DNA of 64,000 nt from Candidatus Poribacteria bacterium (lineage in GTDB: Bacteria; Poribacteria; WGA-4E; WGA-3G). A program made the translations under genes and the position numbers. Under the pieces are notes generated by a model. It had not been told where the DNA came from. It did not search any database and saw only the letters and a list, made by a program, of their open reading frames with translations. The stretch lies in contig CBDBFU010000002.1 in the NCBI GenBank assembly GCA_965205025.1, positions 320,001-384,000 of the forward strand, given 5' to 3'. Within the stretch, counting starts at the first letter, position 1. Every line of letters starts with the position of its first letter. Positions 24,154 to 60,389 of this stretch are shown here, piece after piece.

Positions 24154-24181
24154 TGCAACCGTTTTCCTCCTAAGTCGCGTC
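24154..24181 (+). promoter_or_regulatory. ECF-type promoter of fusion gene 1 (TGCAAC-N18-CGTC)
   Basis: Homologous motif upstream of all nine ECF genes (33767, 37142, 40543, 46005, 49437, 54034, 57280, 60316). Confidence 0.75.
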
Positions 24182-24229
24182 ATAAGGGTTCAATATCATT
24201 TTTGAACCTATTCTCTCTGGAGGTATCCG

Positions 24230-27211
24230 ATGAAACACACCGATGTTGAACTGATCCAATACACCCTTGCTGGTGATGAAACCGCTTTCGCAGAACTTGT
24301 GAAAAGGCATCAAAAGCCTGTTCATACATTGGCTTGGCGTAAAATCGGGGATTTTCAGATCGCTGAAGAAATTACACAGGACACCTTCCTGAAAGTATAT
24401 CAAAGATTGCACACCCTGAAAGACCCAAACCAGTTTTCTGGTTGGCTTTATGTGATTGCGACACGCCGTTGCTACGCTTGGCTCCGCAAAAAACGGATAC
24501 GTACCGATCCGTTGGAGGATGTAGATACCACAATGATACACAAAGATGCTTATTCACACCATGTCATAGAAGACAGGAGAAATTCTGCTATTGATGCGCA
24601 CCGCGAAGCCGTCAAAAAACTCCTCGCAAAGCTGAAAGAGAGTGAACGGACTGTGATGACGCTCCACTATCTCGGTGAAATGACTGTTGAGGAGATAAGC
24701 AAGTTTATTGGGGTGTCCGCGGGGACAATCAAGAGTCGATTGCAACGTGCGCGAAACCGACTCCAAAAGGAGGAAACAATGATTAGAGAAGCACTCGAAC
24801 ATTTCCAAATATCACCAAACCTGACAGATAACATTATGCAAGAGGTACATCGTCTTAAACCTACACCTACCGGGAGTAAACCGCTTATCCCGTGGGCAGT
24901 TGCTGCGTCTACCGCTGTTTTGATTGCATTGATGTTGGGGATAGGAAGTCAACACTTAGCACGTTTCCAGCAACCCTATAATTTGGAAGCACAATCCGAG
25001 ATGTCAGTTGAACTCGTTGAGGCACCTATTGTGCCAATACTTGAGATGGAACCGGATGTACGACGCCAGATTGGAAATACGAATGCTGTTGGTAAGAGTA
25101 ATAGACCGAAACAAAACCCTGATGAGGTATTATTTGCTTCCACACAAGTACAAGGAGAAAATATGTCTAACCAAAAACAACAATGGATTCATGCAAAACG
25201 GGTGAAAGGCGCTCCAGCCATGAACCTGAGCACTACACCTGATGGGGATCTCTATGCTTTCTTAAATTTTCTTTCTGTCTATAGACAATCTAAAGATACA
25301 AATACATGGCAACATCTCTCCAGCATAAACAAACTAAGAACTAATTGGGGAGGCGATCCATCAATAGTGAAGTGGAACAATACTTTGTATTTCAGTATAT
25401 CCAATAATTTTTATTCTTCTACGAATAACGGTGAAACTTGGGATTTACTCTATTCTTGGAAAAACGGAGAAAACGTGTTCCCACTTAACGACTACGAGTT
25501 TCCAATTAAATTCATTATAACAGAGCAAGCTTTTTACCTTGCTTTTAGGAATGGTGTTTTCCAGTCTGATGACAACGGCAAAACATGGAAAAATATTAGC
25601 GTTGGATTGAAGGGAAGATCTGTACATTTTATTAACTCATTTATTAATATCCAGAACACGGTCTTTGTTGGAGCTAACGATGGTTGCTACCGTTACAATG
25701 GTAATGAATGGGAACGCTTGGAATTCCCAAGCAAAGTTTTCAGTGTTGTTTCAACTGCAGCAGATGCGGGGAAACTCTATGTTATGGCGGAGTTGAATTG
25801 GTGGAAAGCCGATCAAGAGTTCAAACGTACTTGGGGAATATTCCGATCAACTGACCTCGGAGATTCATGGGTAGATATTACACCTACACATGCTTGGCAA
25901 TTAGATGGTGATCGTCCAAATTTAGTATTAATTGCTGTAGGTGAAACACTTTTGGCAATGGAGCATGGAATGGTACGTTCGTTGGATAGTGGGGACACAT
26001 GGCTGAGTCCTCAAACACAAGACACATCACCACAAATGGGTAATCTTTCCCCAGTTGCAGTCATGAATGACCAGACTATTTATGTTGGCAGCGGGGACGG
26101 TCTATATTCTTCCACTGATCTCGGTGAATCGTGGCACAAGGCGAACATAAGGCAAAATGGAGGAAGTATATATGATCTTATTGCATTAAAAAAGGCTGAT
26201 AAAGGTCAAACTAACCCTTCGTCGCTCTATGCAATAGTAGAGGGAGAAACAAATTCGTCAAATGACATACAAAAAACAGATGATAGCGGGAATTCTTGGA
26301 AACGCGTCCAAATTGCGAAACCAATGACAGATCCTATCAGAAGGGTAACTCCGGATTTTACCCACATTTTAAAATCAGGGGAAGTTCTTTATGCCAAGGG
26401 AAAGGATGGTATTGGCGATGTTAATAAAGTGTATATACATCGTGTATCCAATGATAGTAAAACGATTGAACGGATTCAAGGGATGCCGACTTTCAGTTCG
26501 GAAGGGTTAGATGATAAGTTTTCTGAAGAAGAAGTTCATGGCGGAACTCAGTTTTTTAAACAGTTGACACAACCGAATTACGAAAAGGGTAGTAAGCCTC
26601 GAAAAAACCTTATAAAGCAAGGGTTACGCGGACCGTTTGCTGTTGATAAAGACACATACTACATTGAATTCAACTTTAAGCTCTTCCGGTGGAAGATGGG
26701 GGATACAGAATTGTATGACACGGAACAGGAAGAAACAATTGAATTGAGTGAGGACACAATAAAGAAAGATCTCAAACTTGCGGTTTCAGGAAACACTGTC
26801 TACGTAGGAAAACGGGATGGACATTTCGTTGTATCGTTTGATAGGGCAACTAATTGGATTGATTTCACACCGGCACTACCATTTGCTGTTAATGACTATA
26901 AACAGATTTTGGTTGCTGGAACTACTGTATATGTAGCAACGGACGCTGGCATGATTACATCTGATGATGGAAGAAGTTGGAATACCATCACCGATGCAGT
27001 AGGAGATAATCTCATAATGGAACACTTAGCAAATGATGGAAATGCATTGTATGGTACTACAGAGAAGTCCGGTATCTATCGCTTAGAAAATGGCAGTTGG
27101 AATCAGATTGTATCTGAAATACCAGACAGTATAACTTCTATGGCTGTTGATGGAAATACCTTATACGTAGGCACACGCAACCAAGGCATGCTTCACTATA
27201 CTTTTGAATAG
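24230..27211 (+). CDS. ECF sigma factor - TM - BNR/Asp-box beta-propeller fusion (#1)
   Basis: sigma2 (AEEITQDTF, FSGWL), sigma4 (GTIKSRLQRAR), TM after KPLIPW, repeated SxDxGxTW motifs. Confidence 0.9.
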   Translation: MKHTDVELIQYTLAGDETAFAELVKRHQKPVHTLAWRKIGDFQIAEEITQDTFLKVYQRLHTLKDPNQFSGWLYVIATRRCYAWLRKKRIRTDPLEDVDTTMIHKDAYSHHVIEDRRNSAIDAHREAVKKLLAKLKESERTVMTLHYLGEMTVEEISKFIGVSAGTIKSRLQRARNRLQKEETMIREALEHFQISPNLTDNIMQEVHRLKPTPTGSKPLIPWAVAASTAVLIALMLGIGSQHLARFQQPYNLEAQSEMSVELVEAPIVPILEMEPDVRRQIGNTNAVGKSNRPKQNPDEVLFASTQVQGENMSNQKQQWIHAKRVKGAPAMNLSTTPDGDLYAFLNFLSVYRQSKDTNTWQHLSSINKLRTNWGGDPSIVKWNNTLYFSISNNFYSSTNNGETWDLLYSWKNGENVFPLNDYEFPIKFIITEQAFYLAFRNGVFQSDDNGKTWKNISVGLKGRSVHFINSFINIQNTVFVGANDGCYRYNGNEWERLEFPSKVFSVVSTAADAGKLYVMAELNWWKADQEFKRTWGIFRSTDLGDSWVDITPTHAWQLDGDRPNLVLIAVGETLLAMEHGMVRSLDSGDTWLSPQTQDTSPQMGNLSPVAVMNDQTIYVGSGDGLYSSTDLGESWHKANIRQNGGSIYDLIALKKADKGQTNPSSLYAIVEGETNSSNDIQKTDDSGNSWKRVQIAKPMTDPIRRVTPDFTHILKSGEVLYAKGKDGIGDVNKVYIHRVSNDSKTIERIQGMPTFSSEGLDDKFSEEEVHGGTQFFKQLTQPNYEKGSKPRKNLIKQGLRGPFAVDKDTYYIEFNFKLFRWKMGDTELYDTEQEETIELSEDTIKKDLKLAVSGNTVYVGKRDGHFVVSFDRATNWIDFTPALPFAVNDYKQILVAGTTVYVATDAGMITSDDGRSWNTITDAVGDNLIMEHLANDGNALYGTTEKSGIYRLENGSWNQIVSEIPDSITSMAVDGNTLYVGTRNQGMLHYTFE

Positions 27212-33741: not shown

Positions 33742-33821
33742 TAAATATGTACCATCATTAAATTTATGCACCAGTTTAACTCAGTGACTCGCGGTCACTA
33801 TAGAGTAATCTGAGGTAATCC

Positions 33822-36775
33822 ATGCAAAACAATGATGTTGAAATAATTCGTCGTATTCTTGATGGTAATGATACCGCATTCGCTGAACTTGTGAATAAGT
33901 ATCAAAGAACAGTTCACGCACTGGTATGGCGTAAGATTGAAGATTTTCATATCGCCGAAGAATTAACACAAGACATCTTTTTGAAAGTGTATCAAAAATT
34001 GAATACCTTGAAGAAACCACACTGTTTCACAAGCTGGCTCTATGTGATTGCTTCGCGACGCTGCACTGCTTGGTTGCGTAAAAAGCGTATGTTAACGCAG
34101 CCAATTGAAGATACTACGGATTTAGAACCTGAAAAAAGTAAATACTCAAAGTATGTCACTGAAGAAAACGAACGTACAGCAATAGAAGCACAACGTGAAA
34201 TCGTCCGAAAGTTGCTTGCTAAACTGCCAGAGAGTGAACGAACTGTCATAACATTACGCTACTTCAGTGATATGTCCAGTGCAGAAATTGGTGCGTTTTT
34301 AGGGGTATCCGCAAATACGGTGAGAAGTCGTCTTCGTCGAGCACGGAACCGTTTACAAAAGGAGGAAACAATGATAAGAGAAGCACTCGAACATTTCCAA
34401 ATATCACCAAACCTAACCGATAACATAATGCGAGAAGTTTCACGTCTCAAACCTGCTGCCCCTTCTACCAGCAAACCTATAATCCCGTGGGTGATAGGTG
34501 CTACAAGTGCAGTATTGATTGTGCTAATGCTCGGTATTGGCAACCAGTACTTAGCATATTACCAACAACCTTATAGTATAGAAGCACAAACTGAGATGTC
34601 GGTTGAACTTCTTGACACTCCCATTGTTCCATTAATTGAGACAGAACCGAATGTGCGTCGACAGTTTGGAAATATAAATGCAGTTGGTAAAGACAATAGT
34701 CCAAGACAAAATCCGGATGACGTATTATTGGCTTCTGCACAAGCGGAAGGAGAAGATGTTTCTGTCCCTAAACAGCAGTGGATTCAGTCGGCACCAATGT
34801 CCGGAAGTTCTACACAGGAACTCCTTGCTACATCCGATGGGGATCTCTACTCTTATACAACTGGACATCTCTACAAATTGCCTGCTGACGGGAAAATCTG
34901 GCAACATCTCTTTGAAATTTGGACACTGAATCATACCCAATTAAATAATCCAGTTCTTGCTGAGTGGAACAAAACATTGTACTTTACGCAATCAAGTGAA
35001 CTTTTTGCTTCAATAGATGATGGTAAAACATGGAATTTAGTTTACTCTTGGAAAGAAACACACTCTAATCCGATTGAAATGATTCTAACAGACCACGAAT
35101 TTTTATATCGCTTTTGACAACGGTATTTTCCGTTCTAATGATTACGGTGAAACTTGGAAGCCTATAAGTGGGGTATTTGATGGAAGTATTAATGCCTTAG
35201 TTAAGGTACAAAACACACTTCTTGCAGGAACAGATAACGGACTTTATCGTTTAGATACAGAAGGCTGGAAACGTCTGGAATTTCCAGAACCTATAGAATG
35301 GGTGTATTCAGTCGCTGTAACTGAAAACATGATCTATATTTTGGCATCACTCGAGAGATCTGCACTTAATCCTGCCAAAGTGTCACGTGGACATGAACGA
35401 GGGTGGGTGTTATTTGGGTCAAGCAACCTTGGTAATAGATGGATTGATATAACCCCAATAAATGCATGGGCAGTAAATGGCTTTATTCCTGAAGCCAAAC
35501 TAATTGCAACAGGTGATACCATTTTACTAATGGAAAGAGGCATGGTTCGGTCTGCTGATTCGTGGAATAACGTGGTCACCTCCACAATTATCAGGTACCA
35601 CACCTTTTATGGATAGTTATAGTCCTGCTGCAGTAGTGAACGCTGATACTATTTATGTCGATGGGGGTAGTCTACACCGATCCACCGATTACGGGAAATC
35701 ATGGGAAATAGTGAATATTACACCAGATAATAAAAATGATGGAATATATAATCTCATAGTGTTCGCAGGAGGTGAAAAAGATAATAACACGCGTCCTTTC
35801 CTTTACGGTAAATTCGGAGCAGAAGGCATAAAAACAACCGATAAAGGTAAGTCTTGGAAAGATGTTCCCGTTGAAATTTCGATGTCAAAACCCTTCAGGG
35901 AAAATTCCTTAAGTATAAATCAGATAATCAAATCTGGTGATATACTTTATGCAAGCGTAGACTATCAGTTAAGTGGAGAAAAAGTACGGATCTATAAACT
36001 CTCATCTAATGGCAGCAGGTTTTTACCAATACAAGAGATCCCAATTTTTGACTCAGGTAGGTTAGCGCTTGAATTAGAACGTAATCTCTCTGTTGATCAT
36101 TTGCAAACCCAATTTCTTGGAGCTCCACAGTTCTTCAAACAGCTGGTTATTGGAAATGCACAACAACAAAAAATGCTTATACAACGTGGATTAGAAGGAG
36201 CTTTTGATGTCAGTGACGATACGTTCTACATGGAATATAATTTTAAGCTCTTCAGATGGAAGATGGGTGATACTGAATGGTATGATACCGGTGTTGAAGA
36301 AACTGTTGAATTGTCTGAGAGTAATGCAAAGAAAAAACTAAAACTTGCTGCCTTTGAGAATGCTGTCTACGTCGGGAAACGGAATGGACATCTCATAGTA
36401 TCCTTTGATAGGGGAACTAATTGGATAGATCTAACACCAGCCCTACCTTTTTCCGTTCAAACATTCAATGAAATCGTGTTTGTAGGAACTACTGTGTATG
36501 TAGCAACAAATGCTGGTGTAATAGCATCAAGTGATGGGAAGCAGTGGTCAATTGCCTCCAATTCTGATGACGCAAATCTCATTATGGAACACTTATCTGT
36601 TGATGAAAACACCCTTTATGGGATTAAGGACACAGGTATTTATCGCTTGGAAAACGGTATTTGGAAACAGATCGTCACAGAGATACCTGATAAGGTAACT
36701 TCTCTGGCTGTTGATGGGAAAACCTTATACGTAGGTACAGAAACCCAAGGCATGCTACACTATACTCTTGAATAA
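33822..36775 (+). CDS. ECF sigma - TM - BNR propeller fusion (#2), two +1 frameshifts
   Basis: ORFs 33822-35117, 35302-35616 and 35609-36775 are colinear with #1/#7; extra T at ~35100 and ~35560. Confidence 0.85.
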
Positions 36776-37102: not shown

Positions 37103-37226
37103 TAATATCTTAATCTCATTGATAAATACACTCCTAAAATGTGAGACTTTTTCATCTCAGTATGCGTCACTATATTATGAATATGTCAATACACAACCAT
37201 ACACATTTCATGTACAGAGGTATCTG

Positions 37227-46079: not shown

Positions 46080-49007
46080 ATGAAGAACAACGATGATGCT
46101 CTCATCCAAGATGTTCTTGATGGTGATGATACGGCGTTTGCCACGCTTGTAAAAAAACACCACAAATCTGTTCACGCCCTTGTGTGGCGGAAAATCGGTG
46201 ATTTTCATATCGCTGAGGAAATTACACAGGATACATTCTTGAAAGCGTATCAGAGACTTTCAACGCTAAAAGAACCACAGCGTTTCTTGAGTTGGCTCTA
46301 TGTTATAGCAACAAACCGTTGTAAGGCATGGCATCGTAAGAAGCGTCTGTGGACACAACCGTTGGATAAAGCAAGTAATTCAGAGTTAGAAAAATCAGCT
46401 TATTCCAATTATGTCATCGAACAAAATAAACGAAAATTAGCTGAAACACAACAGGAAGTCGTCAAGAAACTGCTTGCCAAATTACCTGAGAGTGACCGGA
46501 CAGTCATCACACTCTACTACCTCGCGGAAATGTCCTATGAAGAGATTAGTAATTTTTTAGGTGTATCGGAAGCCGCTATTAGAAATCGTCTTTACCGAGC
46601 ACGACGCCGTCTAAAAAAGGAGGAAACAATGATTAGAGAAGCACTCGAACATTTCCAACTTTCACCGAACTTAACCGATAATATAATGCGAGAAGTTTCA
46701 CGTCTCAAACCTGCTGCCCCTTCTACCAGCAAACCTATAATCCCGTGGGTGATAGGTGCTACAAGCGCAGTATTGATTGCACTGATGTTTGGTATAGGGG
46801 GGCAGTTCTTAGCACATTTCCAAAAGCCGTATAGTTTAGACGCACAATCTGAAACTTCAGTTGAAATTGTTAATGCACAAGTTGTTCAAAACTTTGAGGT
46901 AAAATCAGACAACCGAAATCAGTCTGGAAATAGAACAGATTTAGGTGGTAGAAATGATGGCAATGATGAGAATACCAAACAGGTTATAGGTAATGGTGAT
47001 GGTGATTATACCCGATGGAATCTACCGGAAAGGGCGAAAGCACGTCTCAGCAAAGGACGCATAAATGGAATAAACTTTTCACCAGACGGAACTCAAATTG
47101 CAGTAGGTAGTGCTACTGGTGTTTGGATCTATGATGTTCGCACAGGTGCTGAACTTGCCCTGCTTACTGACCATACATCACGTACAGGGGAAGTAGTATT
47201 CTCTCCAGATGGTAAAACATTGGCAACGGGATTGAATAGTAAAATCTTACTGTGGAATACAGCAACAGGAAAACTTTTAAAGACTTTTAAAATAATAGAG
47301 GATGGGGTGGTAAAAGCACTAAGATTTATTGACGACGGCAAAACCCTTCGCTGTGACTATTACGACGGTTCAGTTCGCTTATGGGATATTACCACTGGCG
47401 TAAAAAAGGATTTCCGTCCTGCACCCCCACGTGGATTAAAAGGAATACCGAGACACATTATGGGGCAGGAAGTTACAGCCGCAGACTTATACCTTAACAA
47501 TGTTGACAACAAAGGCATTTTTGCGGTCGGGGAAATAGATGGTAAAATTCGGTTGGATGATGCTATGACCGGACAACACCTAAAAACTCTTCAAGACCAC
47601 AAAAACCGTATTTCAAAGTTGTTATTTTCACCTGATGGCACTCTTCTTGTTTCTAATGCCTATAATCAGGCTCCACTCCGTTTATGGGATGTAACCACCG
47701 GAAAATTGCTAAAAACGCTAACTAAAGATCTGGATATTCATAGGCAGATCCTGAATTTCTCTAAAGATGGGAAAACCTTGGCTTGTTCGGCGTGGATGAG
47801 GAAGACAGGGGATCGAAAAATTGAGTTATGGGATGTTGCAACTAAAACACTTCGTACCACTCTTTTCACAAAGTTAGACTCTAATATTCATCATCTGGCA
47901 TTTTCACTTGATTCTAAGACGGTTGCAACGGTGAACTGGAACGATGAAATCCAAGTATGGGATGTTAACACCGGTAAAGAATTGTCTTCTTTTACAACAA
48001 ACCATACGCCGGGGTCTACAACATTAGCGTTTTCATCAGATAGTACCATCTTGGCAAGCGGACAGGGCAAAACAATAAGGTTATGGGATACGTTCAACTT
48101 TACAGAACTTTCTCACCATATAGACACTGATACTGGCATCATTACCATCGTCTTATCACCTAATGGCAGAATATTGACTGGTGTAAGTGACTTCAGGATC
48201 GAGATAAAAAGAGGGAATGATTCTGTCATCGAAACTGTACGCGGTAGATTGCATGTATGGGAAACACACACAGGGAACAAACTATCTGAAACACCAGTTG
48301 AATCTCACAAAGGAGACGGACCAGAACATCCAGAGCAGAATTTTAATTCATCTGCTTACCTTGGAATGTATAATCCATCTATTTTTTCTAAAAATGGTCA
48401 CCTGCTTGCAACTGTTATAAATAAGAGAGGTGAGCACATGCTTATGACTAATCCAAATTCAGAATGGGCAAACAACCGATTTACTGTCCACTTATGGGCT
48501 GTTCCCTATGAGAAGTCTCATGCCACTCTCAAGGGACATACAAAAAAAATTAACGTATTAGCATTCACCCATAATGGAAAAATGATTGCAAGCGGAAGTG
48601 ACGACGGGACAATTCGACTGTGGAATACAAGTACTGGGACACAGATGTTAAGTATCCCCTCAAGAAAAACCAATTCCTTAGCATTTTCTGAGGATGGTAA
48701 AATCCTTGCAAGCAGCAATCCTGTTAATATTCAACTGTGGGATGTTGGTACCGGCACACAACTGAAATCTCTTAAAGCAGAAAACGATTCCGTGACCGTT
48801 TTGACATTTTCAACGGATAGCAATATTCTTGCATGTGGCAACCGAGACGGGACAATTCGACTGTGGGACCTTTCTACTGGGAACGAATTAACAACCTTCA
48901 AAGGTCATGTTGATCGGATAAACGCCTTATCTTTTTCATCAGATGGCAAAATGCTTGCCAGTAGTAGCGTTGATGGTGCCATATTCTTATGGAACATCTC
49001 TGCTTAA
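46080..49007 (+). CDS. ECF sigma - TM - WD40 fusion (#5)
   Basis: Start MKNNDD after GAGGT; sigma4 AAIRNRLYRAR; WNLPERAKARL then WD40 repeats. Confidence 0.9.
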   Translation: MKNNDDALIQDVLDGDDTAFATLVKKHHKSVHALVWRKIGDFHIAEEITQDTFLKAYQRLSTLKEPQRFLSWLYVIATNRCKAWHRKKRLWTQPLDKASNSELEKSAYSNYVIEQNKRKLAETQQEVVKKLLAKLPESDRTVITLYYLAEMSYEEISNFLGVSEAAIRNRLYRARRRLKKEETMIREALEHFQLSPNLTDNIMREVSRLKPAAPSTSKPIIPWVIGATSAVLIALMFGIGGQFLAHFQKPYSLDAQSETSVEIVNAQVVQNFEVKSDNRNQSGNRTDLGGRNDGNDENTKQVIGNGDGDYTRWNLPERAKARLSKGRINGINFSPDGTQIAVGSATGVWIYDVRTGAELALLTDHTSRTGEVVFSPDGKTLATGLNSKILLWNTATGKLLKTFKIIEDGVVKALRFIDDGKTLRCDYYDGSVRLWDITTGVKKDFRPAPPRGLKGIPRHIMGQEVTAADLYLNNVDNKGIFAVGEIDGKIRLDDAMTGQHLKTLQDHKNRISKLLFSPDGTLLVSNAYNQAPLRLWDVTTGKLLKTLTKDLDIHRQILNFSKDGKTLACSAWMRKTGDRKIELWDVATKTLRTTLFTKLDSNIHHLAFSLDSKTVATVNWNDEIQVWDVNTGKELSSFTTNHTPGSTTLAFSSDSTILASGQGKTIRLWDTFNFTELSHHIDTDTGIITIVLSPNGRILTGVSDFRIEIKRGNDSVIETVRGRLHVWETHTGNKLSETPVESHKGDGPEHPEQNFNSSAYLGMYNPSIFSKNGHLLATVINKRGEHMLMTNPNSEWANNRFTVHLWAVPYEKSHATLKGHTKKINVLAFTHNGKMIASGSDDGTIRLWNTSTGTQMLSIPSRKTNSLAFSEDGKILASSNPVNIQLWDVGTGTQLKSLKAENDSVTVLTFSTDSNILACGNRDGTIRLWDLSTGNELTTFKGHVDRINALSFSSDGKMLASSSVDGAIFLWNISA

Positions 49008-49513
49008 AGAAACTACGATCCCTGTAATATTTCTCTTTTCTGATCACGTGTTTGTTATTCTTAAGATGTATTGAAAGTGTCTACAATTGATGGCAATTTT
49101 CACAATCATAAATAGCGAAAACTATCAATCAATTATTACTTCCATTTCACTTTATTCCATATATTTCCCACCGCGGTTTCTCACCTCAAATAGACCTTAC
49201 ATCTTGACAAACCCGACTGATTTAGTAGAATAGTATTTCAATGTTTCCGACCAATCCTATCTAACCATTCTTACTTTTAGATAATCATCAATATTCTGTT
49301 ATTGTATTTATGGTATAATTCAACCTTCAGAAATAAATCGTACACATTTAAGACCTTCCCTTCTATCAATAATTAACCTTTTACTCGAATGATATATTAA
49401 CCTCCTTATATCAGCATGTTTTATTTTGCAGAATTACGCGACCATTTTACACCTATCATGCGTCACTATAGTTTGATATGACATTAATCAATTTATAGTT
49501 TCGGAGGTATCTG

Positions 49514-52500
49514 ATGAAAAACGACGATGTTGAACTTATCCAGATGTTTCTCGCTGGCGATGAACTCGCTTTCACTGAACTCGTAAAAAAGTATCATAAA
49601 CCAGTTCACGCACTGGCTTGGCGAAAAATTGAGGATTTCCATATCGCTGAGGACATCACTCAGGATACCTTCCTAAAAGTGTATCAGAGACTCCATACCT
49701 TGAAAGATCTCAGTCATTTTTCAGGATGGCTCTATGTCATAACAACAAACTTATGTACCACATGGCTACGCAGAAATCGAAAACAGACTGAACGATTGAA
49801 GGATGCAGAGATAACAATGACACAAAGTGATACTTACTCACAACATGTCAGAGATGATCGTGCTAACAGTGTAACGCAGGAACAACGAGAAGTTGTTAAG
49901 AAACTCCTCGCGAAGCTGAAAGAGAGTGAACGCACTGTGATGACACTCCACTACCTTGGAGAGATGAAGATTGAGGAAATCAGCAAATTCTTAGGAGTAT
50001 CCGTAAGCACAATCAAAACCCGTCTCATGCGTGCAAGACAACGTCTAAAAAAGGAGGAAACAATGATTAGAGAAGCACTCGAACATTTCCAAATATCACC
50101 AAACCTGACCAATAATATTATGCAAGAGGTGATGCGTTTAAAACCTACACCTTCTGGAAACAAACCCGTAATCCCATGGGCAATTACTGCAACAAGTATT
50201 GTTTTAATTGCGTTGATGTTAGGAATCGGCAACCAGTACTTAGCATACTTCCAACAACCTTATAGTTTAGAAGCACAAACTGAGATGGCAGTTGAACTTC
50301 TTGACACTCCCATTGTTCGATTACTTGAGACGGAACCGAATGTGCATCGACAGTTTGGCAATGCGAATGCGGAAGGTAAGAACGACACCCCAAGCCAAAC
50401 CCCTGATGATCTCTTATTGGCTGCTGCAGATATAGAAGGAGAAGACACTCCAACGACTAAACAACAATGGATTCAGGGAAACGCACCTGAATATCAATAT
50501 GGTACATCAGTAAGATCTCTATATCCTACCCCTGAAGGAGATATCTATATTTTTGCAAACGATCGTATAATCGCTAAATTACCAGCAAATGGAACTGAAT
50601 GGGAAGTTGTCAGTGATGTTAGTACACTGCACGATTATAGAAATCGGGATGATGAAATCCCTATCACCACTTTAAACGATACACTCTATATTGTCCTATC
50701 TGATGAACTCTTTTCATCTACAGATAAAGGTAAGACATGGCAGTCAGTCAGCAAATGTCCTCAAGGAAACATACTCGATTTGGTGGTAATAGACAATGTG
50801 TTTTATCTCGCCATGCAACATCAGATATTTCGTTCTACAGACATTGGAAAAACATGGGTAGCAGTGGAAGATGGCTTGCCAGCGGACATACGTGCAGTTA
50901 AGGTTATTCAAAATACGCTTTTTGTTTCCACACCCATTGATTGGGGGCAGGCACTGTATCGGCTTAATGGTGATAGTTGGGAACGCCTGCAGTTTCCAAA
51001 TGCTGAAATCCATAGTGTCCCTTCCTTTGGGGGAACTAAAGACGTTCTCTATGTAATTGCATCATTAAATGTAAGGAAAATTGATGGACGGAAGCAGGGG
51101 TGGTGGATTTTCCGCTCAGCTGACAAAGGAGATTCATGGACAGATGTAACACCCAAATACGCATGGAACATAAATGATGATCCACCTTCTGTAACATTTG
51201 CCTCAGCAGGAAATACAGTTTTGGTAATTGGTGCAAATGATGGTGCTGTCGTTCGTTCAATTGATAGGGGAAATTCATGGACACTGAAGGAAATCACCGG
51301 TATACCTGTAAAGTCTTACGGTATTATCGATACATTTTCACTTGACGAAAACACATTTTATTCACTTGGCAATTCTGGCTTCTTACGTTCTCTTGATGGT
51401 GGTCAATCGTGGAATAGAGTTGAAATTAGCCAAGAAAGTCGAATAGACCAACTCATCTGGATTAAACCTGACAAAAAGCAGAACACATCAGGAGACCTAT
51501 ACTGTAAGATAGTGAATGAGATATTTAAATCCAGTGATGCGGGAAAATCTTGGCAGATAGTTAATCCAAAGATCAATATTAGAGAATATAATATAGACGG
51601 ACCTCCAGTTTTTACTCGAATCAATAGTTCCGGTGATATTCTCTATGCAAAATATGGTGGATATTCGCTATCCAGTCTAAATACAGGTATATACCGTATA
51701 TCGGATGATGGGGACACATTTGTACCCATACAAGGCATGCCTATTTTCGATTCACGAAGATTACAATCTCTGATGTCTGCAGTATTAAATGGTAATTTGG
51801 ATTTATCAGAGAAAACCTTTGAAGAACAATTAAAAGAAGAATTCCTCGGTGCGGATCAGTTCTTTAAGACGTTGGGGAATTGGGATACCGATGAACAAGA
51901 AGGAATTACTGAGAGAAAACTATATTCAGAATATATTGAACTAATAAGTCAAGGGGTACGCGGTATGTTTGCCGTCAGCGGCAACACCTTCTACATGGAA
52001 TACAACTATAAACTCTTTCGATGGAAGCCGGGTGAATCAGAATGGTATGATACCGGTGTAGAAGAGACAGGTGAACTTAACAGAAGAAAATTTGTAAAAT
52101 CATTAGAACTTAAGGGTTTGTCACAGGAAATGATATACGATATCATCAGGGCATCGGCAGATTTTAAACTTGCTGTTTCAGGGAACACCATCTACGTCGG
52201 AAAACGAGATGGACAACTTGTCGCATCGTTTGACGAAGGGAATAATTGGATCGATTTCACGCCGGCTCTACCATTTCCTGTCACCTATTTTAAAGAGATT
52301 CTATTTGCTGGACCTACGGTGTATGTAGCAACAGATGCAGGTGTTGCAGCGACAGAAAATGGCAAAAGTTGGTATCCTCTCTCCGATGCATCAGGAACAC
52401 CTGTCAACATTGATAAACTTGCTGTTGATGGAAACACTCTTTACGGGTATAGCAAAAAAACAGGTATTTATCGCGTGGAAAACGGAAATTGGGTGCAGAT

Positions 52501-52609
52501 TTCCTCAGAGACACTACCTTATGTGAATTCTTTGGCTGTGTATGGGAACACACTATATGTGGGTTCGATGGAACAAGGCATGCATTTATACAAACTTGAA
52601 GATAACTAA
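49514..52609 (+). CDS. ECF sigma - TM - BNR propeller fusion (#6)
   Basis: sigma4 STIKTRLMRAR; SxDxGxTW repeats; paralog of #1/#2/#7. Confidence 0.9.
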   Translation: MKNDDVELIQMFLAGDELAFTELVKKYHKPVHALAWRKIEDFHIAEDITQDTFLKVYQRLHTLKDLSHFSGWLYVITTNLCTTWLRRNRKQTERLKDAEITMTQSDTYSQHVRDDRANSVTQEQREVVKKLLAKLKESERTVMTLHYLGEMKIEEISKFLGVSVSTIKTRLMRARQRLKKEETMIREALEHFQISPNLTNNIMQEVMRLKPTPSGNKPVIPWAITATSIVLIALMLGIGNQYLAYFQQPYSLEAQTEMAVELLDTPIVRLLETEPNVHRQFGNANAEGKNDTPSQTPDDLLLAAADIEGEDTPTTKQQWIQGNAPEYQYGTSVRSLYPTPEGDIYIFANDRIIAKLPANGTEWEVVSDVSTLHDYRNRDDEIPITTLNDTLYIVLSDELFSSTDKGKTWQSVSKCPQGNILDLVVIDNVFYLAMQHQIFRSTDIGKTWVAVEDGLPADIRAVKVIQNTLFVSTPIDWGQALYRLNGDSWERLQFPNAEIHSVPSFGGTKDVLYVIASLNVRKIDGRKQGWWIFRSADKGDSWTDVTPKYAWNINDDPPSVTFASAGNTVLVIGANDGAVVRSIDRGNSWTLKEITGIPVKSYGIIDTFSLDENTFYSLGNSGFLRSLDGGQSWNRVEISQESRIDQLIWIKPDKKQNTSGDLYCKIVNEIFKSSDAGKSWQIVNPKINIREYNIDGPPVFTRINSSGDILYAKYGGYSLSSLNTGIYRISDDGDTFVPIQGMPIFDSRRLQSLMSAVLNGNLDLSEKTFEEQLKEEFLGADQFFKTLGNWDTDEQEGITERKLYSEYIELISQGVRGMFAVSGNTFYMEYNYKLFRWKPGESEWYDTGVEETGELNRRKFVKSLELKGLSQEMIYDIIRASADFKLAVSGNTIYVGKRDGQLVASFDEGNNWIDFTPALPFPVTYFKEILFAGPTVYVATDAGVAATENGKSWYPLSDASGTPVNIDKLAVDGNTLYGYSKKTGIYRVENGNWVQISSETLPYVNSLAVYGNTLYVGSMEQGMHLYKLEDN

Positions 52610-52643
52610 TACCATATATTTCAATTCCTAAAGGAGAATAAAA

Positions 52644-53811: not shown

Positions 53812-54086
53812 GAAATAAACTATTAGTAACACTAATCAACTGATAATTCTTTAAACTAAATAACCCAACCAAAATACGTAAGTCTGTATATGTTGATAAA
53901 TTGATGATATAATTCTATTCAAGGAATCAATCATACAGACTCTGTTCGTACCTTCTCGTTATCTGTAAAATTCATAATCCGTATAATCAGATAGTGTCCT
54001 CCTATATGTAAACCTGTTCCATTTTCAAATTTATGCACCAGTTTACCCTCAAATTTGCGTCACTATAGGGTAATCTGAGGATATTC

Positions 54087-57000
54087 ATGAAAACCACTGA
54101 TATTGATCTCATCCACCGCATTCTTGATGGCGATGATACTGCTTTCACAGAACTTGTGGAGAAATACCAAAAACCAGTTCATGCACTTGTGTGGCGTAAG
54201 ATTGGGGATTTCCATATTGCCGAGGAAATTACCCAGGATACATTTCTAAAGGTTTATCAGGAATTGAAGACACTGAAGAAACCACACAGTTTTGCAAGTT
54301 GGCTTTATGTAATTGCTGCAAACAACTGCAGTACGTGGCTACGTAATAAGCGTCAAATGCCAGAGTCGTTTGAGGATACAAACACCACACAATTGGAAAA
54401 ACCAACCTATTCGAGGTATGTCATCTCGGAAAAAGAACGAATAGCAATAGAATCGCAGCGTGAAGTCGTGGAAAAATTGCTTGCAAAACTTCAGGAAAGT
54501 GAACGTACAGTCATCACACTACACTATTTTGGTGAGATGTCAAGTGCGGAAATCGGAGCGTTCTTAGGTGTATCTGCAAATACGGTAAGAAGTCGTCTCC
54601 GACGCGCACAACAACGCCTAAAAAAGGAGGAAACAATGATTAGAGAAGCACTCGAACATTTTCAAATATCACCTAACTTGACTGATAATATCATAAAGAA
54701 AATTTCTCGAACAAAACAGGTCATACCGACATCTGGAAAACCAGTTATCCCATGGGCAATAGGGGCATCAAGTATTGTTTTTATTGTGTTACTATTGGGA
54801 TTCGGAAGCCAATACTTAGCACGTTTTCAGATACCCTATAGCCTGGATGCACAGACTGAAATGACGGTTGAACTTGTTGACGCTCCCGTTGTGCTAAATC
54901 TTGAGACGAGGTCAGATGCACGTCGTCAGTTTGGAAATCCAAATGCACTTGGTACAAGTGAAAATAACGGTCAGAAACCAGATGAGGTTTTATTAGCTGC
55001 TGCAGAGCCAGAAGGAGAAACCGTTTCTGTTCCCAAACAGCAGTGGATTCAGTCTGAAGCCATCAAAGGAAGTCGTGCTACAAGTTTGCACGCGACACCT
55101 GAAGGAGATCTCTACGTTTATGATTTTGATTTTCATAATAATATCTATAAATTACCTGCTAATGGAACAATGTGGCAATCTATCTCAGAAAATATCCGTT
55201 TGGATACTGTTTGGAGCATATCTCCAGCTATTACAAAATGGAATGATACACTCTATTTTATGCCAACGAACAAACTCTTTGCTTCAAAAGATGAAGGTAA
55301 AACCTGGAATTTACTTCATTCGTGGCAAGAGGGACATGGAGCAATCGAATTTGTACAAATGGAACAGGTTCTTTACGTTGCGTTTGAAAATGGAATCTTT
55401 AAATCAGAAGATGCTGGCAAGTCTTGGAATGCAATACACGATGAGAAAATCGAGTATATTGATTCACTGATCAATATCCAAAACACTTTATTTGTCCAAG
55501 CTTATAATAAACTCTACCGTTTGGAGGATGATAAATGGCAACTTCTTGAATTTCCAGTACCCGTCAGGAGGATTTTGTCAGTTGCAGTTTCTGAAGATAA
55601 GCTTTATGTTGCGGTATTCTTCAATTGGGAGGAAGCGAATGTAGATAGAGAAAAAATGGAACAGGGACTGGTACGTGGTTGGTGGATATACCGTTCAACG
55701 GACCTTGGCAACTCATGGCAAGATATAACACCGACAAACGCTTGGAACATAAAAGGATGGCCTCCCTATCCCAAAATGATTGCTACTGGTGAAACACTAC
55801 TCGTAATGGAACGGGGTATGGTGCGTTCTACCGATGGCGGGGCCACATGGATGCCACCACAACCACCGGACACCTCTCCGTTTATGCGGGATGATAATAA
55901 TGCTGTAGCATTAAATGAAAACACCTTTTATGTCAGTAGCGATGACGGTCTCTATCGTTCCACTGATGGCGGCAGTTCGTGGGAAATGGTAAAAGTTCCT
56001 CTGGATAAGACGAGGAGGATATTTTACAACCTAATCACTTCAGAAGGGAGCAAAAAAGGACAGAACAAACAAAATACTCTCTATGGGATAGTTGAAGTTT
56101 GGAAAATAACAAAAACTACTGACAATGGCAAGACTTGGAAGGACGTTAAAGTTGATCTGCCTATGACAAAACAACTTACAGAACCCATACCACATTTTAT
56201 CCAAATTGTTCCTTCCGGAAATGCAGTCTATGCCAAAGGTGGATCTGTTGGCGGAGGGAAAATGCGCCACTACAAAGTATCTAAAGATGGATATACATTG
56301 GTACCTATTCAAGACATGCCTGCCTTCAACTCGATTGAATTAAGAATGCATCTACATCAAGTACAAGACCTTTCTATTGAAGCGCTACAAGACAGTTTTT
56401 CAGGGGCGACTCAATTCTTCAAACAGATGCTCCAGCTACCTCCACAACTTCGGACAAAACTTGAAGAACTTGGATTACTTGGGCCTTTTGCAGTCAGTGG
56501 TGATACATTCTATTCGGAATATAACTTTAAGCTCTTCAGATGGGAACCCAGTAATACTGAATGGTACGACACTGGACAGGAAGAAACTACTGAATTGTCC
56601 TTGGACATATTTAAACCCCACTTCATCATTCCCAAACTTGCAGTATTAGGCGACACTGTCTACTACGGAAAGCGGGACGGCAGCCTTGTCGTATCGTTTG
56701 ATAGGGGAGACAATTGGATTGACCTCACACCGGGACTACCGTTTAAGGTGAAAACTTTCAAAGGGATCGTATTTGCTGGTACTACAGTGTACGTAGCGAC
56801 GAACGCAGGCATCATTACATCAGATGATGGAAAAGCTTGGAAAGTCGTCACTGACTCTGATGGAACCAATGTTATCATGGAGCATTTGGCAGCCGACGGT
56901 ACAACGCTATATGGCATCACCAAGAAAACAGCAGTATATCGTTTGGAAAGTGATAGTGACACTTGGAAACTACTTGATTCAGAGATACCTGCCATCCTAT

Positions 57001-57104
57001 ATTACGAGGGAGGGGATATCGTAACTTCTCTCGCTGCAGCTGATAACACGCTATACATAGGTAGTGAAAGAAGCGGTATGCTTCATTTCACTATTGAAAA
57101 ATAA
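54087..57104 (+). CDS. ECF sigma - TM - BNR propeller fusion (#7)
   Basis: sigma4 SANTVRSRLRRA; SxDxGxTW repeats. Confidence 0.9.
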   Translation: MKTTDIDLIHRILDGDDTAFTELVEKYQKPVHALVWRKIGDFHIAEEITQDTFLKVYQELKTLKKPHSFASWLYVIAANNCSTWLRNKRQMPESFEDTNTTQLEKPTYSRYVISEKERIAIESQREVVEKLLAKLQESERTVITLHYFGEMSSAEIGAFLGVSANTVRSRLRRAQQRLKKEETMIREALEHFQISPNLTDNIIKKISRTKQVIPTSGKPVIPWAIGASSIVFIVLLLGFGSQYLARFQIPYSLDAQTEMTVELVDAPVVLNLETRSDARRQFGNPNALGTSENNGQKPDEVLLAAAEPEGETVSVPKQQWIQSEAIKGSRATSLHATPEGDLYVYDFDFHNNIYKLPANGTMWQSISENIRLDTVWSISPAITKWNDTLYFMPTNKLFASKDEGKTWNLLHSWQEGHGAIEFVQMEQVLYVAFENGIFKSEDAGKSWNAIHDEKIEYIDSLINIQNTLFVQAYNKLYRLEDDKWQLLEFPVPVRRILSVAVSEDKLYVAVFFNWEEANVDREKMEQGLVRGWWIYRSTDLGNSWQDITPTNAWNIKGWPPYPKMIATGETLLVMERGMVRSTDGGATWMPPQPPDTSPFMRDDNNAVALNENTFYVSSDDGLYRSTDGGSSWEMVKVPLDKTRRIFYNLITSEGSKKGQNKQNTLYGIVEVWKITKTTDNGKTWKDVKVDLPMTKQLTEPIPHFIQIVPSGNAVYAKGGSVGGGKMRHYKVSKDGYTLVPIQDMPAFNSIELRMHLHQVQDLSIEALQDSFSGATQFFKQMLQLPPQLRTKLEELGLLGPFAVSGDTFYSEYNFKLFRWEPSNTEWYDTGQEETTELSLDIFKPHFIIPKLAVLGDTVYYGKRDGSLVVSFDRGDNWIDLTPGLPFKVKTFKGIVFAGTTVYVATNAGIITSDDGKAWKVVTDSDGTNVIMEHLAADGTTLYGITKKTAVYRLESDSDTWKLLDSEIPAILYYEGGDIVTSLAAADNTLYIGSERSGMLHFTIEK

Positions 57105-57205
57105 TGTAGTAAAGTCTATAATGCTATAAACACTATTGACAGCACGTTTATTGCGGATAGTATACATATTTTTAGATTTGACAATAAAATCAGGGCATTT
57201 TGTCT

Positions 57206-57232: not shown

Positions 57233-57358
57233 TCTTTATCCTTCTCTCTTTCCTTCCAAATTCTCATAATGCAGAATTATGCAACCGTTTTACAGCTAAT
57301 TTGCGTCATAATAGTCTGATATGTATTTGATCAAACTATCGCCTAATGGAGATACCTT

Positions 57359-60097
57359 GTGAAAAACGACGATGTTGCGCTTATCAGAAAGATACTCAAC
57401 GGTGATGAAATCGCATTTGCAAAACTCGTGAAAAAATATCAAAAGGCAGTACATACGCTTGCTTGGCGAAAAATTGGAGACTTCCACATTGCAGAGGACA
57501 TCACCCAAGATGTCTTTCTAAAAGTGTATCAGAGACTCCACAGCCTGAAAGATCCAAATCAATTTTCTGGGTGGCTCTATGTAGTTACAACAAACCTTTG
57601 TAACACATGGTTCCGCAAAAATCGGATTCAAACCCAGCCGATGGAAAACGTTGAGACAACCAAGATAGAAAAAGACGCATATTCACGACATATCGCAGAA
57701 GAGCGAGTTAAGACCACTATTGAGGCACAACGTGAAGTAGTCAAGAAACTCCTCGCGAAGTTGAAAGAGAGTGAACGCACAGTCATGACGCTCCATTACC
57801 TCGGTGAGATGTCAGTCGAAGACATCAGCAAGTTCATAGGGGTATCTTCTGGAACGATAAAGAGCCGACTTCAACGAGCGCGCAACCGTCTTAAGAAGGA
57901 GGAAACAATGATCAGAGAAGCACTCGAACATTTCCAAATATCCCCTACCCTGACTGATAATATTATGAAGGAAATTTCTCGAACAAAACAAGTTACACCA
58001 ACATCTGGAAAACCAATTATCCCTTGGGCAATAGGGGCATCAAGTGTTATTTTTATTGTGTTACTATTGGGATTCGGAAGCCAATATTTAGGATTATTCC
58101 AGAAACCTTATAGTTTGGTAGCACAAACCGAAACCACAGTGGAACTTGTTGATGCACAAGTAATCCAAAATCTTGATGCAAATCCAAGTGTGCTAAATCA
58201 ACTCAATCAACAGAATTCGGATAGAGATGGCAGAGAAAATGCTGATGATGAGAAATCAAATCAAACATCAGGTGATATAGGAGACTATACCCGATGGAAT
58301 TTACCGGAAGGTGCTAAAACCCGAATCGGAAAAGGCAGAATCTATGACATTGCGTATTCGCCGGATGGCACGCGTCTGGCTGTAGCAAGTTCGATCGGGG
58401 TATGGCTCTATGATGCAAACAGTGGAAAAGAACTTAACCTGTTAACAGAGCATACGGACAAGGTCTTGAGCATAGCATTCAATCTTAATGGAAACATACT
58501 GGCAAGTGGAAGTGATGATGGCAGCATAGACTTGTGGGATACACGCACCAGTAAACATCTTCGGACAATGACAGAGGATACGTCCTTGATCACGAACGTG
58601 GTCTTTAGTGGGGATGGCAAAATGTTGGCAAGTGCAAATAAGGATAACACTATTCGACTGTGGGATACACAGTCAGGCAAAATCCGAAAGACTCTTAAGG
58701 GGCATGCAGATAAGATCTTCAGTATATGGCTCAGTTGGGATGCCAAAATGTTGGAAAGTGCGAGTAAGGATAACACTATTCAACTGTGGGATACACAGTC
58801 AGGCAAAATCCGAAAAACCCTCAACCTTGAGCATTCACAGGAAATTGACAGAATGGCGTTCAGCGCGGATGGCAAAACATTGGCGAGTTGGTGTATTGAA
58901 AGCCCAATTTATCTATGGAATGCACAAACAGGTGAGGTTCGCCATACTCTCCCGTTAGAACAAATGGATATTGTCAATGAATTTGCATTCAGTCCAGATG
59001 GAAAAACGATCGCAAGTGCTATGCACAGCGGCACCGTCCATCTGTGGAATGTACAGACAGGTGAACACCTTCGAAGCCTCATAGGGCATACGCACTGGGC
59101 ATTGAACGTGGTGTTCAGTCCTGATAGCAAAACACTCGCAAGTGGGAGTTTCGATAATACTATCCGTTTTTGGGAGGTCCAGACGGGAAAAACACAAAAA
59201 ACGCTCACAGGACATTTGAGCGATACCGTGCATGTAGCGTTTAGTCCAGATGGAAAAACACTTGCAAATGCAATGGAAGATGATACCATCCGTTTATGGA
59301 ATGCACAGACAGGAGAAGTTCGCCAAATTCTCAAAAGGCAAAATATGCCTTCAATCGCGGGTGTAGCGTTCAGTCCAGATGGAAAAACACTTGTAGGTGG
59401 CACAGATGGAAGTGATTCTTACGCCATTCGTCTGTGGGATATACAAACAGGCAAAATTCACAAAACTTTCGGTGGACATACGGATTATGTTACGAGCGTG
59501 GCATTCAGTCCAGATGGTACTTTGTTAGTAAGTGGAAGTTGGGATAAGACCATCCAGCTGTATCATGCGCAGACAGGAGAACTCCTCAAAACTTTCTCAG
59601 GACATACGGATTGGGTTATGAGTGTGGCGTTCAGTCCAGATAGAAAAATGATAGCAAGTGGGAGTAAGGATAACACCGTCCGTATATGGGATGTGCAAAC
59701 AAGTGAAGTCCTTAAAACCCTAACAGGACATGCGGGTGTAGTCTTTAGCGTGGCGTTCGCCCCCAACGGCAAAACACTCGCAAGTGGGAGTCATGATGGT
59801 CTCATCCATCTGTGGGATGTGCAAACAGGTGAAATCCTTGAAACCACAGAACATACAGATTGGGTTATGAGCGTGGCATTCAGTCCAGATAGCCGAACGC
59901 TCGCAAGTGGAAGCAAGGATAGCACCATTCAACTGTGGGATACACAGACAAATATAACCCAACAAATTCCCATGGGTCATACGAGCTGGGTTACAAGCGT
60001 GGCATTCAGTTCAGATGGCAGGACGCTCGCAAGTGGAAGTAAAGACGGCACTATCCTGTTGTGGGAACATAAACCTAAGACAATCCAGCAAAAGTAA
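57359..60097 (+). CDS. ECF sigma - TM - WD40 fusion (#8)
   Basis: GTG start; sigma4 GTIKSRLQRAR; highly regular GH...VAFSPDG..LASGS.D.TI.LWD repeats. Confidence 0.9.
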   Translation: MKNDDVALIRKILNGDEIAFAKLVKKYQKAVHTLAWRKIGDFHIAEDITQDVFLKVYQRLHSLKDPNQFSGWLYVVTTNLCNTWFRKNRIQTQPMENVETTKIEKDAYSRHIAEERVKTTIEAQREVVKKLLAKLKESERTVMTLHYLGEMSVEDISKFIGVSSGTIKSRLQRARNRLKKEETMIREALEHFQISPTLTDNIMKEISRTKQVTPTSGKPIIPWAIGASSVIFIVLLLGFGSQYLGLFQKPYSLVAQTETTVELVDAQVIQNLDANPSVLNQLNQQNSDRDGRENADDEKSNQTSGDIGDYTRWNLPEGAKTRIGKGRIYDIAYSPDGTRLAVASSIGVWLYDANSGKELNLLTEHTDKVLSIAFNLNGNILASGSDDGSIDLWDTRTSKHLRTMTEDTSLITNVVFSGDGKMLASANKDNTIRLWDTQSGKIRKTLKGHADKIFSIWLSWDAKMLESASKDNTIQLWDTQSGKIRKTLNLEHSQEIDRMAFSADGKTLASWCIESPIYLWNAQTGEVRHTLPLEQMDIVNEFAFSPDGKTIASAMHSGTVHLWNVQTGEHLRSLIGHTHWALNVVFSPDSKTLASGSFDNTIRFWEVQTGKTQKTLTGHLSDTVHVAFSPDGKTLANAMEDDTIRLWNAQTGEVRQILKRQNMPSIAGVAFSPDGKTLVGGTDGSDSYAIRLWDIQTGKIHKTFGGHTDYVTSVAFSPDGTLLVSGSWDKTIQLYHAQTGELLKTFSGHTDWVMSVAFSPDRKMIASGSKDNTVRIWDVQTSEVLKTLTGHAGVVFSVAFAPNGKTLASGSHDGLIHLWDVQTGEILETTEHTDWVMSVAFSPDSRTLASGSKDSTIQLWDTQTNITQQIPMGHTSWVTSVAFSSDGRTLASGSKDGTILLWEHKPKTIQQK

Positions 60098-60389
60098 GTT
60101 TATCATGAATCAAATTGAATATGAGATCACCTTAATAGATTCGCCAGGATCTAAATTCCCTCCTACCAAGAAATTTCAGCTAAATGGCAATTATTGATGT
60201 AATGTATATCTCTGCGTTAATTCTCACCCATATTGACTAAAATTGTACTATAATTCCATTAATAGTAAATAACTATAAATCTTTCTTATCTCTATCCGCA
60301 TAAATTCAAAAAATGTGAAACTTTTTACTCGCTTGTCGCGTCACTAAGGGTTGATATCTAATTGAACATACCCTTTGCAGAGGTATCCG

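Follow-up and report, generated by a model that had tools for sequence, protein, structure and literature searches.

Candidate promoters of nine tandem ECF sigma factor paralogues in Poribacteria covary at -35 with the sigma4 helix of their own gene

The principle by which extracytoplasmic function (ECF) sigma factors recognize the -35 element is already known (Lane and Darst 2006; Todor et al. 2020). As described for E. coli sigmaE, R176 contacts the G at -35, S172 position -34, F175 position -33' and R171 positions -31'/-32', and T169 is among the residues making upstream nontemplate-strand interactions at -35/-34 (PMC1540707). Todor et al. report a code obtained from mutual information over 41,665 ECF sigmas with putative autoregulatory promoters and confirmed R171/-31 and S172/-34 by saturation mutagenesis (PMC7776599), while Lane and Darst describe the -10 element as the main discriminator among the group IV sigmas of one species (PMC1540707). 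ECF sigmas fused to other domains have also been described. A review (PMC8999054) includes ECF57, which has a long WD40-rich C-terminal extension and two conserved cysteines linking sigma2 and sigma4, and hybrids for which proteolytic release is described (IutY, ECF243) or proposed (SCO4117, ECF52). Here we analyse a stretch of 64,000 nucleotides (nt) from a Candidatus Poribacteria bacterium, a sponge symbiont (contig CBDBFU010000002.1, positions 320,001 to 384,000; the window), which nine long ECF sigma paralogues on the + strand occupy from 24.2 kb to its end, and the promoter-like element that stands before each of them.

We consider it probable that every member of this nine-paralogue array has a promoter of its own, with a -35 element matched to its own sigma4 domain, and that this match would support self-feedback within a promoter class. 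The published ECF code likewise uses autoregulatory promoters as its dictionary (PMC1540707, PMC7776599), and the likeness extends to the residues: the equivalent of R176 is invariant together with the -35 G, and variation at the positions of S172, F175 and R171 goes with that at -34, at -33/-32 and at -31 and its neighbour, respectively. In contrast to the statement of Lane and Darst, the Poribacteria paralogues share one -10 box and differ in the -35. Unlike in the published code, the covariation lies inside one young family and within single genomes, against a constant -10. Two pairings also depart from the general rules given by Todor et al.: an arginine at the F175 position goes here with A or C at -32 and not with T, and a serine at the S172 position goes with C, once with A, at -34. 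A preliminary description of this locus had spoken of a natural recognition code; the array is indeed a clear natural case, of a principle that these papers had already published. The words 'Poribacteria' and 'paralog' are absent from the main text of Todor et al. (PMC7776599). The preliminary description had also cited TGAAAC...CGTC/CGTA as a Bacillus SigM/SigW-type consensus; our literature search found no paper pairing the three hexamers searched for with ECF sigmas.

The element has a -35 hexamer of the form xGxxxC, a spacer that starts T-rich, and then CGTCA. A two-block weight matrix, trained on 111 sites from other genomes only and used at a threshold of at least 12 bits, gave 8 hits on both strands of the 64 kb, every one directly upstream of one of these sigma genes. 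Thirty dinucleotide shuffles gave 0.1 hits on average, and the best shuffled site reached 16.8 bits, compared with 18.3-39.5 for the real sites. The site of gene #2 was missed by the matrix because its spacer is 20 nt long. The layout of an autoregulated-type ECF promoter is present before 9/9 genes in the window, 8 of them with a spacer of 17-18 nt, which bears out the earlier proposal that each gene has its own ECF-type promoter. From the end of the -10 to the start codon there are 24-57 nt, with a GGAG-type ribosome site at the start. The matrix scan returned no non-self targets in the 64-kb window. Looser exact-pattern sites at 534, 20799 and 54902 (+) and 21026 (-) have an odd -10 or are intragenic and were taken as chance. 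The nine sites are as follows.

Promoter #1: 24154..24182, + strand; TGCAAC, 18-nt spacer, CGTCA; 39.5 bits.
Promoter #2: 33767..33797, + strand; TGCACC, 20-nt spacer, GGTCA; spacing and -10 deviant, missed by the matrix.
Promoter #3: 37142..37169, + strand; TGAGAC, 17-nt spacer, CGTCA; 19.5 bits; inside the over-long reading frame from 37119.
Promoter #4: 40543..40571, + strand; TGAGAC, 18-nt spacer, CATCA; 27.4 bits.
Promoter #5: 46005..46032, + strand; TGAGAT, 17-nt spacer, CGTCA; 18.3 bits.
Promoter #6: 49437..49465, + strand; CGCGAC, 18-nt spacer, CGTCA; 30.2 bits.
Promoter #7: 54034..54062, + strand; TGCACC, 18-nt spacer, CGTCA; 32.4 bits.
Promoter #8: 57280..57308, + strand; TGCAAC, 18-nt spacer, CGTCA; 39.5 bits.
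Promoter #9: 60316..60343, + strand; TGAAAC, 17-nt spacer, CGTCA; 21.3 bits.

The genes behind these sites encode an ECF sigma domain, a transmembrane (TM) helix and, in most, a propeller domain. Their first 190 residues align without internal gaps at 55-78% identity. The sigma4 recognition helix is given with each gene.

Gene #1: 24230..27211, + strand; ECF sigma, one TM helix and BNR/Sortilin-Vps10 propeller, 993 residues; helix SAGTIKSRLQR at nt 24716-24748.
Gene #2: 33822..36775, + strand; ECF sigma, TM helix and BNR propeller, two frameshifts; helix SANTVRSRLRR at nt 34308-34340.
Gene #3: 37227..40142, + strand; ECF sigma, TM helix and WD40 propellers, 971 residues from the homologous start; helix SVSAIKNRLYR at nt 37713-37745.
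Gene #4: 40619..42679, + strand; ECF sigma, TM helix and a domain without Pfam family; helix SVAAIKNRLYR at nt 41105-41137.
Gene #5: 46080..49007, + strand; ECF sigma, TM helix and WD40; helix SEAAIRNRLYR at nt 46566-46598.
Gene #6: 49514..52609, + strand; ECF sigma, TM helix and BNR propeller, 1031 residues; helix SVSTIKTRLMR at nt 50000-50032.
Gene #7: 54087..57104, + strand; ECF sigma, TM helix and BNR propeller, 1005 residues; helix SANTVRSRLRR at nt 54573-54605.
Gene #8: 57359..60097, + strand; ECF sigma, TM helix and WD40, 912 residues, GTG start; helix SSGTIKSRLQR at nt 57845-57877.
Gene #9: 60390..63998, + strand; ECF sigma, TM helix, unnamed domain and WD40, running past the window end; helix SIGAIKSRLHR at nt 60876-60908.

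All nine pairings of hexamer and helix that had been noted before are present on the + strand, including the -10 variants CATCA (#4) and GGTCA with longer spacing (#2). They form six classes, with #1/#8, #2/#7 and #3/#4 each sharing one, and the TGAGAT of #5 is a single base away from TGAGAC. Because #1 (BNR) and #8 (WD40) have a common promoter class and different sensor domains, 'one sensor, one channel' fails: the two sensors would act on a single channel.

Relatives were sought with the nine sigma domains in one genome per species. At least 541 were found in the genome collection, of which 80 loci were retrieved and 66 kept, at 8.5 kb each; 63/66 are titled Candidatus Poribacteria and 3/66 'uncultured bacterium'. 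A protein search gave at least 6857 proteins at E<=0.001 among 8000 scored, and every named hit came from Poribacteria. A hidden Markov model (HMM) of the sigma domain had 131 hits in the 66 loci and the window taken together, 125 of them full-length and 124 after one duplicate was removed. Every full-length family domain lies on the same strand as the query, and tandem arrays are therefore general in the family. An anchored search placed the promoter motif before 120/124 family genes. Its spacer is 18 nt long in 93 cases, 17 nt in 26 and 20 nt in one, and in all 120 promoters the second base of the hexamer is G and the fourth base of the CGTCA pentamer is C. CGTCA itself occurs in 102/120. 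CATCA is found in 6/120, of which five belong to the #4 clade (W_40618, L019_707, L018_3946, L033_7996, L029_7303) and one is L033_786, and the CATCA of #4 is, on this distribution, not decay. A further clade-specific variant, CGACA, occurs in 3/120 (loci L028, L030 and L039). No sigma2 column stood out as covarying with the -10 box, for which the tree holds 11 changes.

Across this sample the hexamers sort by helix. GTIKSRLQR goes with TGCAAC (26/26), NTIKSRLRR with TGCACC followed by C (16/16), NT(V/I)RSRLRR with TGCACC followed by A (16/16), SAIKNRLYR with TGAGAC (8/8) and SAIK(L/I)RLHR with TGTAAC or AGTAAC (11/11); SAIKSRLSR is found with TGCGAC (3), AGCGAC (1) and TGCCAC (1), and the TGAGAT / AAIRNRLYR pair of #5 recurs at a second locus, L029. 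In 54 adjacent gene pairs, the entropy left at hexamer positions 3-6 is 0.0-0.09 bit given the gene's own helix and 1.14-1.28 of 2.0 bit given the neighbour's helix, in line with the earlier claim that the -35 covaries with the sigma4 helix of its own gene. In all 120 promoters the same positions have 0.12-1.08 bit overall and 0.00-0.05 bit within a helix class, compared with 0.66-1.18 bit remaining within class at spacer columns +12 to +16. Within a class, the -35 core thus stays constant and the sequence around it drifts.

Linkage and shared descent had been named from the outset as a possible source of such covariation, and the classes do largely follow clades. We therefore followed changes along a tree of the sigma domains, built without the helix columns by a quick IQ-TREE search. 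By parsimony, hexamer positions 3-6 change 16 times on this tree, and in 14/16 cases the helix changes on the same branch. The corresponding counts are 23/134 and 31/173 for the flanks and 53/228 for the -10 block, a range of 17-23%, and Fisher's test of 14/16 against the 54/307 of the flanks gives p = 9e-9. When 190 protein columns were compared with hexamer positions 3-7, the background rate of co-change was 420/2083 (20%). A column was flagged if at least half of its changes, and at least 2, coincided with hexamer changes. Those flagged in the sigma4 DNA-binding region are residues 157 (2/2), 165 (9/11), 166 (4/5), 168 (5/5), 169 (7/9) and 172 (7/11); the only one outside sigma4 is residue 189 (2/3), in the post-sigma linker. 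Single-trait sign tests on independent pairs were replaced by these per-column controls and by pooled edge-disjoint tip pairs. Among the latter, positions 3-7 differ in 9/16 pairs with different helices and in 2/29 with the same helix (p = 4.8e-4), and no change (0/10) is seen in same-helix pairs whose protein distance is 0.15 or more, at an equal flank divergence of 5.5/19 nt (p = 0.004). The link thus survives a phylogeny-controlled check over 120 promoters from many genomes, of the kind that the preliminary description had called for. As judged from these sequences, the covariation is not explained by shared descent alone.

The covarying residues also sit where the known structures would place them. 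The sigma4 region aligns without gaps to SigW, an AlgU-like sigma and E. coli sigmaE, including the sigma4/-35 DNA complex 2h27. The best-scoring solved structure is SigW 5wuq (E=1.4e-20), whose helix GTVKTRIHR is matched gap-free. Residues 165, 166, 168, 169, 172 and 173 correspond to sigmaE G168, T169, R171, S172, F175 and R176, with the offset in sigmaE numbering inferred from chain 1or7_A, which has three extra residues. Neither the R176 equivalent nor the G at hexamer position 2 varies in the family, and the residues that covary are the equivalents of T169, R171, S172 and F175, for which contacts are described, plus that of G168. The S172, F175 and R171 equivalents track hexamer positions 3, 4 and 5-7, respectively, and the G168 equivalent tracks position 1.

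We propose a model in which an activated sigma domain would transcribe its own gene from its own promoter, giving positive feedback. Activation would probably consist in the domain being freed from the membrane, as it is in other sigma/anti-sigma fusions. The shared -10 and class-specific -35 would confine this feedback to genes of the same class, such that the same-class paralogues #1/#8, #2/#7 and #3/#4, perhaps with #5, should cross-activate and different classes should remain largely separate. The idea of insulated channels is upheld in that each promoter follows its own helix, and has to be narrowed in that there are six classes rather than nine, with pairs that share a class and with #2 and #4 frameshifted. 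Autoregulation, start sites and insulation in the array are what we infer from the sequence.

Several observations weigh against this model. The code is many-to-one in both directions: the helix STIKSRLRR is found with AGCAAC (11), GGCAAC (8) and GGTAAC (1), and TGCAAC is common to GTIKSRLQR, GTIKSRLRR and GAIKSRLSR. Of the 16 helix-different pairs, 7 keep positions 3-7 (L/I swaps, Q/R alone, S/N at 165), two of these differing at hexamer position 1 only. The single-trait sign tests had 2-4 pairs each, a number with which p<0.05 is out of reach, and were not significant, although never in the opposite direction, and the tree has 46/121 inner branches below 80% support and 23/121 starred. The motif is missing within 220 nt of 4/124 family genes and is displaced 146-180 nt upstream by inserted sequence in 3/124. 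The sample in the window is nine genes in six classes, and two of the genes are frameshifted. We likewise infer that the sites are active and that they are read by the cognate sigma, and a sigma tethered to the membrane must either be released or act in place.

Pure hitch-hiking could match promoter and helix without function, as they lie ~560 bp apart in one duplicated cassette. The clade structure of the classes, the non-significant single-trait tests and the recombination breakpoints downstream of sigma4, which keep promoter and sigma domain linked, all fit this explanation. Hitch-hiking nevertheless predicts that the -35 drifts as the spacer does, and what we observe within classes is 0.00-0.05 against 0.66-1.18 bit. 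The coincidence of -35 changes with helix changes (14/16, against 54/307 in the flanks), the 0/10 changes in distance-matched same-helix pairs, and the position of all flagged columns but one, of 190 scanned, in the sigma4 DNA-binding region, five of them aligned to sigmaE G168/T169/R171/S172/F175, make hitch-hiking alone very improbable in our view. We regard it as similarly improbable that the promoters are real but read by another sigma, whether in a cascade from a neighbouring gene or from a single master ECF. The genes do stand in tandem on one strand, and the window contains three class-sharing pairs, for which within-class cross-reading is expected anyway; against this, it is the gene's own helix that leaves 0.0-0.09 bit and the neighbour's that leaves 1.14-1.28 of 2.0 bit, and a single master sigma could not match 12 or more distinct -35 boxes.

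It is also conceivable, if extremely unlikely, that the conserved element is no promoter and instead a binding site for another regulator or a duplication junction. The element does form part of a longer stretch of conserved upstream sequence, in which GCAGAATTA precedes the hexamer. Its two-block layout with a fixed spacer of 17-18 nt and a CGTC-type -10, and its location 24-57 nt before a start codon with a GGAG-type ribosome site, argue otherwise, as does its covariation with sigma4 residues aligned to known DNA contacts. The -35 moreover fits the group IV pattern described by Lane and Darst, an upstream G, an AAC-type core and a T-rich downstream part (PMC1540707). Finally, the sigma domains may stay bound to the membrane, with the proteins in another role and the promoters as relics. 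Our analysis identified neither an anti-sigma domain nor a protease gene or release signal, and 2/9 genes are decaying; both observations would suit such a history. Sigma2, sigma4 and the promoter boxes are nonetheless under clear purifying selection across the phylum, and the proteolysis-activated sigma/membrane-anchor fusions IutY and SCO4117 offer described precedents (PMC8999054); we give this last explanation hardly any weight.

Self-feedback from matched promoters, the model that we favour, has to operate in proteins that resemble the described hybrids only in part. Like IutY and SCO4117, they combine a sigma domain, a membrane span and an extracytoplasmic sensor part, and proteolytic release would be the obvious route to activation. 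The IutY type has a FecR-like anti-sigma part; here no FecR-like, zinc-finger or other anti-sigma Pfam family was found, judged for the WD40 proteins by the best 25 of 64-68 families. The long WD40-rich C-terminal extension that the review describes for ECF57 is matched by #3, #5, #8 and #9. Compared by that description, 4/9 genes here (#1, #2, #6, #7) have BNR/Sortilin propellers instead and #4 an unnamed domain. The two conserved cysteines described for ECF57 are not present either: six genes were checked over their first 200 residues, where #1, #5, #6, #7 and #8 have C81 as their only cysteine and #3 has none.

Sigma70_r2, Sigma70_r4_2 and Sigma70_ECF of Pfam score above their cut-offs in #1, #2, #4, #6 and #7, and in the WD40-rich #3, #5, #8 and #9 the best 25 of 64-68 families are all WD40 or beta-propeller models. 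BNR/Sortilin-Vps10 matches occur in #1, #6, #7 and the third piece of #2. The ECF superfamily model TIGR02937 (NCBIfam) scores 101-110 bits, against a cut-off of 42.9, in the five genes scanned (#1, #3, #6, #7, #9). In these five genes no named NCBIfam subfamily or equivalog model passes its cut-off. The best-scoring named models are those of SigW, RpoE and SigM, yet all remain below: SigW NF007223 at 103-126 bits (cut-off 209), RpoE TIGR02939 at 77-121 bits (cut-off 236) and the SigM family TIGR02950 at 88-107 bits (cut-off 148). The family sigma-domain HMM finds all nine at E<=1e-102, as it must by construction, since it was built from the same nine domains. Directly after sigma4 follows a nearly invariant stretch of ~28 residues, and then a single hydrophobic helix at about residues 218-245, flanked by K/R towards the sigma domain and by acidic residues on the far side. 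Only ~35 residues separate sigma4 from the membrane helix, and for the propeller domain, whether WD40 or BNR/Sortilin-type, an extracytoplasmic location is predicted. The reading frame changes twice in #2 (frames 3>1>2, compared with #7) and three times in #4 between 42007 and 42459 (compared with #9). Both are probably pseudogenes, unless the frame changes are assembly errors. The longest open reading frame of #3 starts at 37119 and covers its own promoter; the homologous start is 37227.

The stretch after sigma4 (KEETMIREALEHFQISPNLTDNIM at 24764-24847, residues 179-206 of #1, and likewise in the other eight genes) has 84% DNA identity among the nine paralogues. Its third codon positions are 71% identical, against ~50% in the sigma domains. 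Such conservation at the nucleotide level points to gene conversion, to a hot spot of recombination or to a function of the nucleic acid itself. Downstream, the membrane-helix segments at residues 205-260 group #2/#5, #4/#9 and #7/#8, across the clades of the sigma domains, and the genes are mosaics. Among the relatives, P0004 and P0005 share 96-97% of their first 250 residues with #1 but have WD40, and P0002 and P0003 are 96% identical to #1 and have BNR/Sortilin. Near-identical sigma cassettes thus occur with either WD40 or BNR domains, and sensor domains have therefore been swapped onto the same cassette.

It is tempting to speculate, and we do so tentatively and with more doubt than confidence, that the 'eukaryote-like' WD40 and BNR propellers of Poribacteria are largely the outward-facing sensors of thousands of membrane-anchored, one-component ECF sigmas, and that linker swaps together with -35 recoding have given at least a dozen self-activating channels that are largely separate. 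Sensor swapping would occur by recombination at the conserved linker just after sigma4, and recoding would involve five helix residues and one to three -35 bases, with the -10 held constant. If this is true, the arrays would be a receptor-like repertoire reading the environment of the sponge host, and they would document, in nature, how duplicates turn into new orthogonal sigma/promoter pairs. Repeat proteins listed as 'eukaryote-like' in sponge symbionts would also acquire a concrete role, as sensor domains of sigma factors. We found no paper linking Poribacteria repeat proteins with sigma factors in our literature search, and the word 'sigma' is absent from the main text of Kamke et al. 2014.

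The evolution of regulation poses the general question of how cross-talk between paralogues is avoided once a gene has been duplicated, and synthetic biology draws its orthogonal switches mainly from ECF sigma/promoter pairs. The natural pairs described here are 55-78% identical and stand five contact residues and one to three -35 bases apart, such that the steps of a specificity switch could be rebuilt, for example between #5 and #9, which are 78% identical, or between L018_3946 and L033_786.

Other genes interrupt the array. Between #1 and #2, positions 28906-33396 encode TPR proteins and a Laminin_G_3 (concanavalin-like) protein, and one protein with weak matches to glycosidase beta-domains; the matrix scan found no ECF promoter motif at the genes of this interval. 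There are two transposase-like genes within the array, one at 27306-28241 (-), a YhgA-like Transposase_31, and one at 44270-45457 (+), with a DDE_3 domain and helix-turn-helix domains. After the broken #4, an open reading frame at 42344-44065 repeats the unnamed extracytoplasmic domain of #4 and #9, with 40% identity to residues 282-640 of #9 and no Pfam match.

The sequence around the ECF promoters has further features. Inverted repeats (e.g. 24186-24209) had pointed to a conserved 5' leader hairpin, which was rejected when RNAalifold on 44 leaders predicted 0 pairs. A housekeeping promoter before every gene was rejected likewise, with sigma-70-like sites not enriched (54 against 59.7 expected; 55 against 51.2). 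Good sigma-70-type matches do lie upstream of #6 (49204) and of #8 (57094 and 57136). A repeated block with a TATAAT-like box after TGG/TAG (e.g. TTTATAGAAATGGTATAA) is found ~60-300 nt upstream of several ECF promoters, at 33650-33745 (compared with 37010-37110), 40470-40490, 45750-45775, 45880-45905, 49204-49231 and 57094-57163. It could be a second, housekeeping promoter, although such sites are not enriched over shuffles. Short GC-rich REP-like hairpin repeats (GGTAGGTTCGGTTTCCTAACCGAACCTA and a related one) also occur upstream of ECF genes, at 23981-24006, ~24016-24036 and ~36937-36960 in the window and likewise at loci L042, L046 and L022. In L042_4000 and L022_874, REP-like insertions put 146-180 nt between the ECF promoter and its gene.

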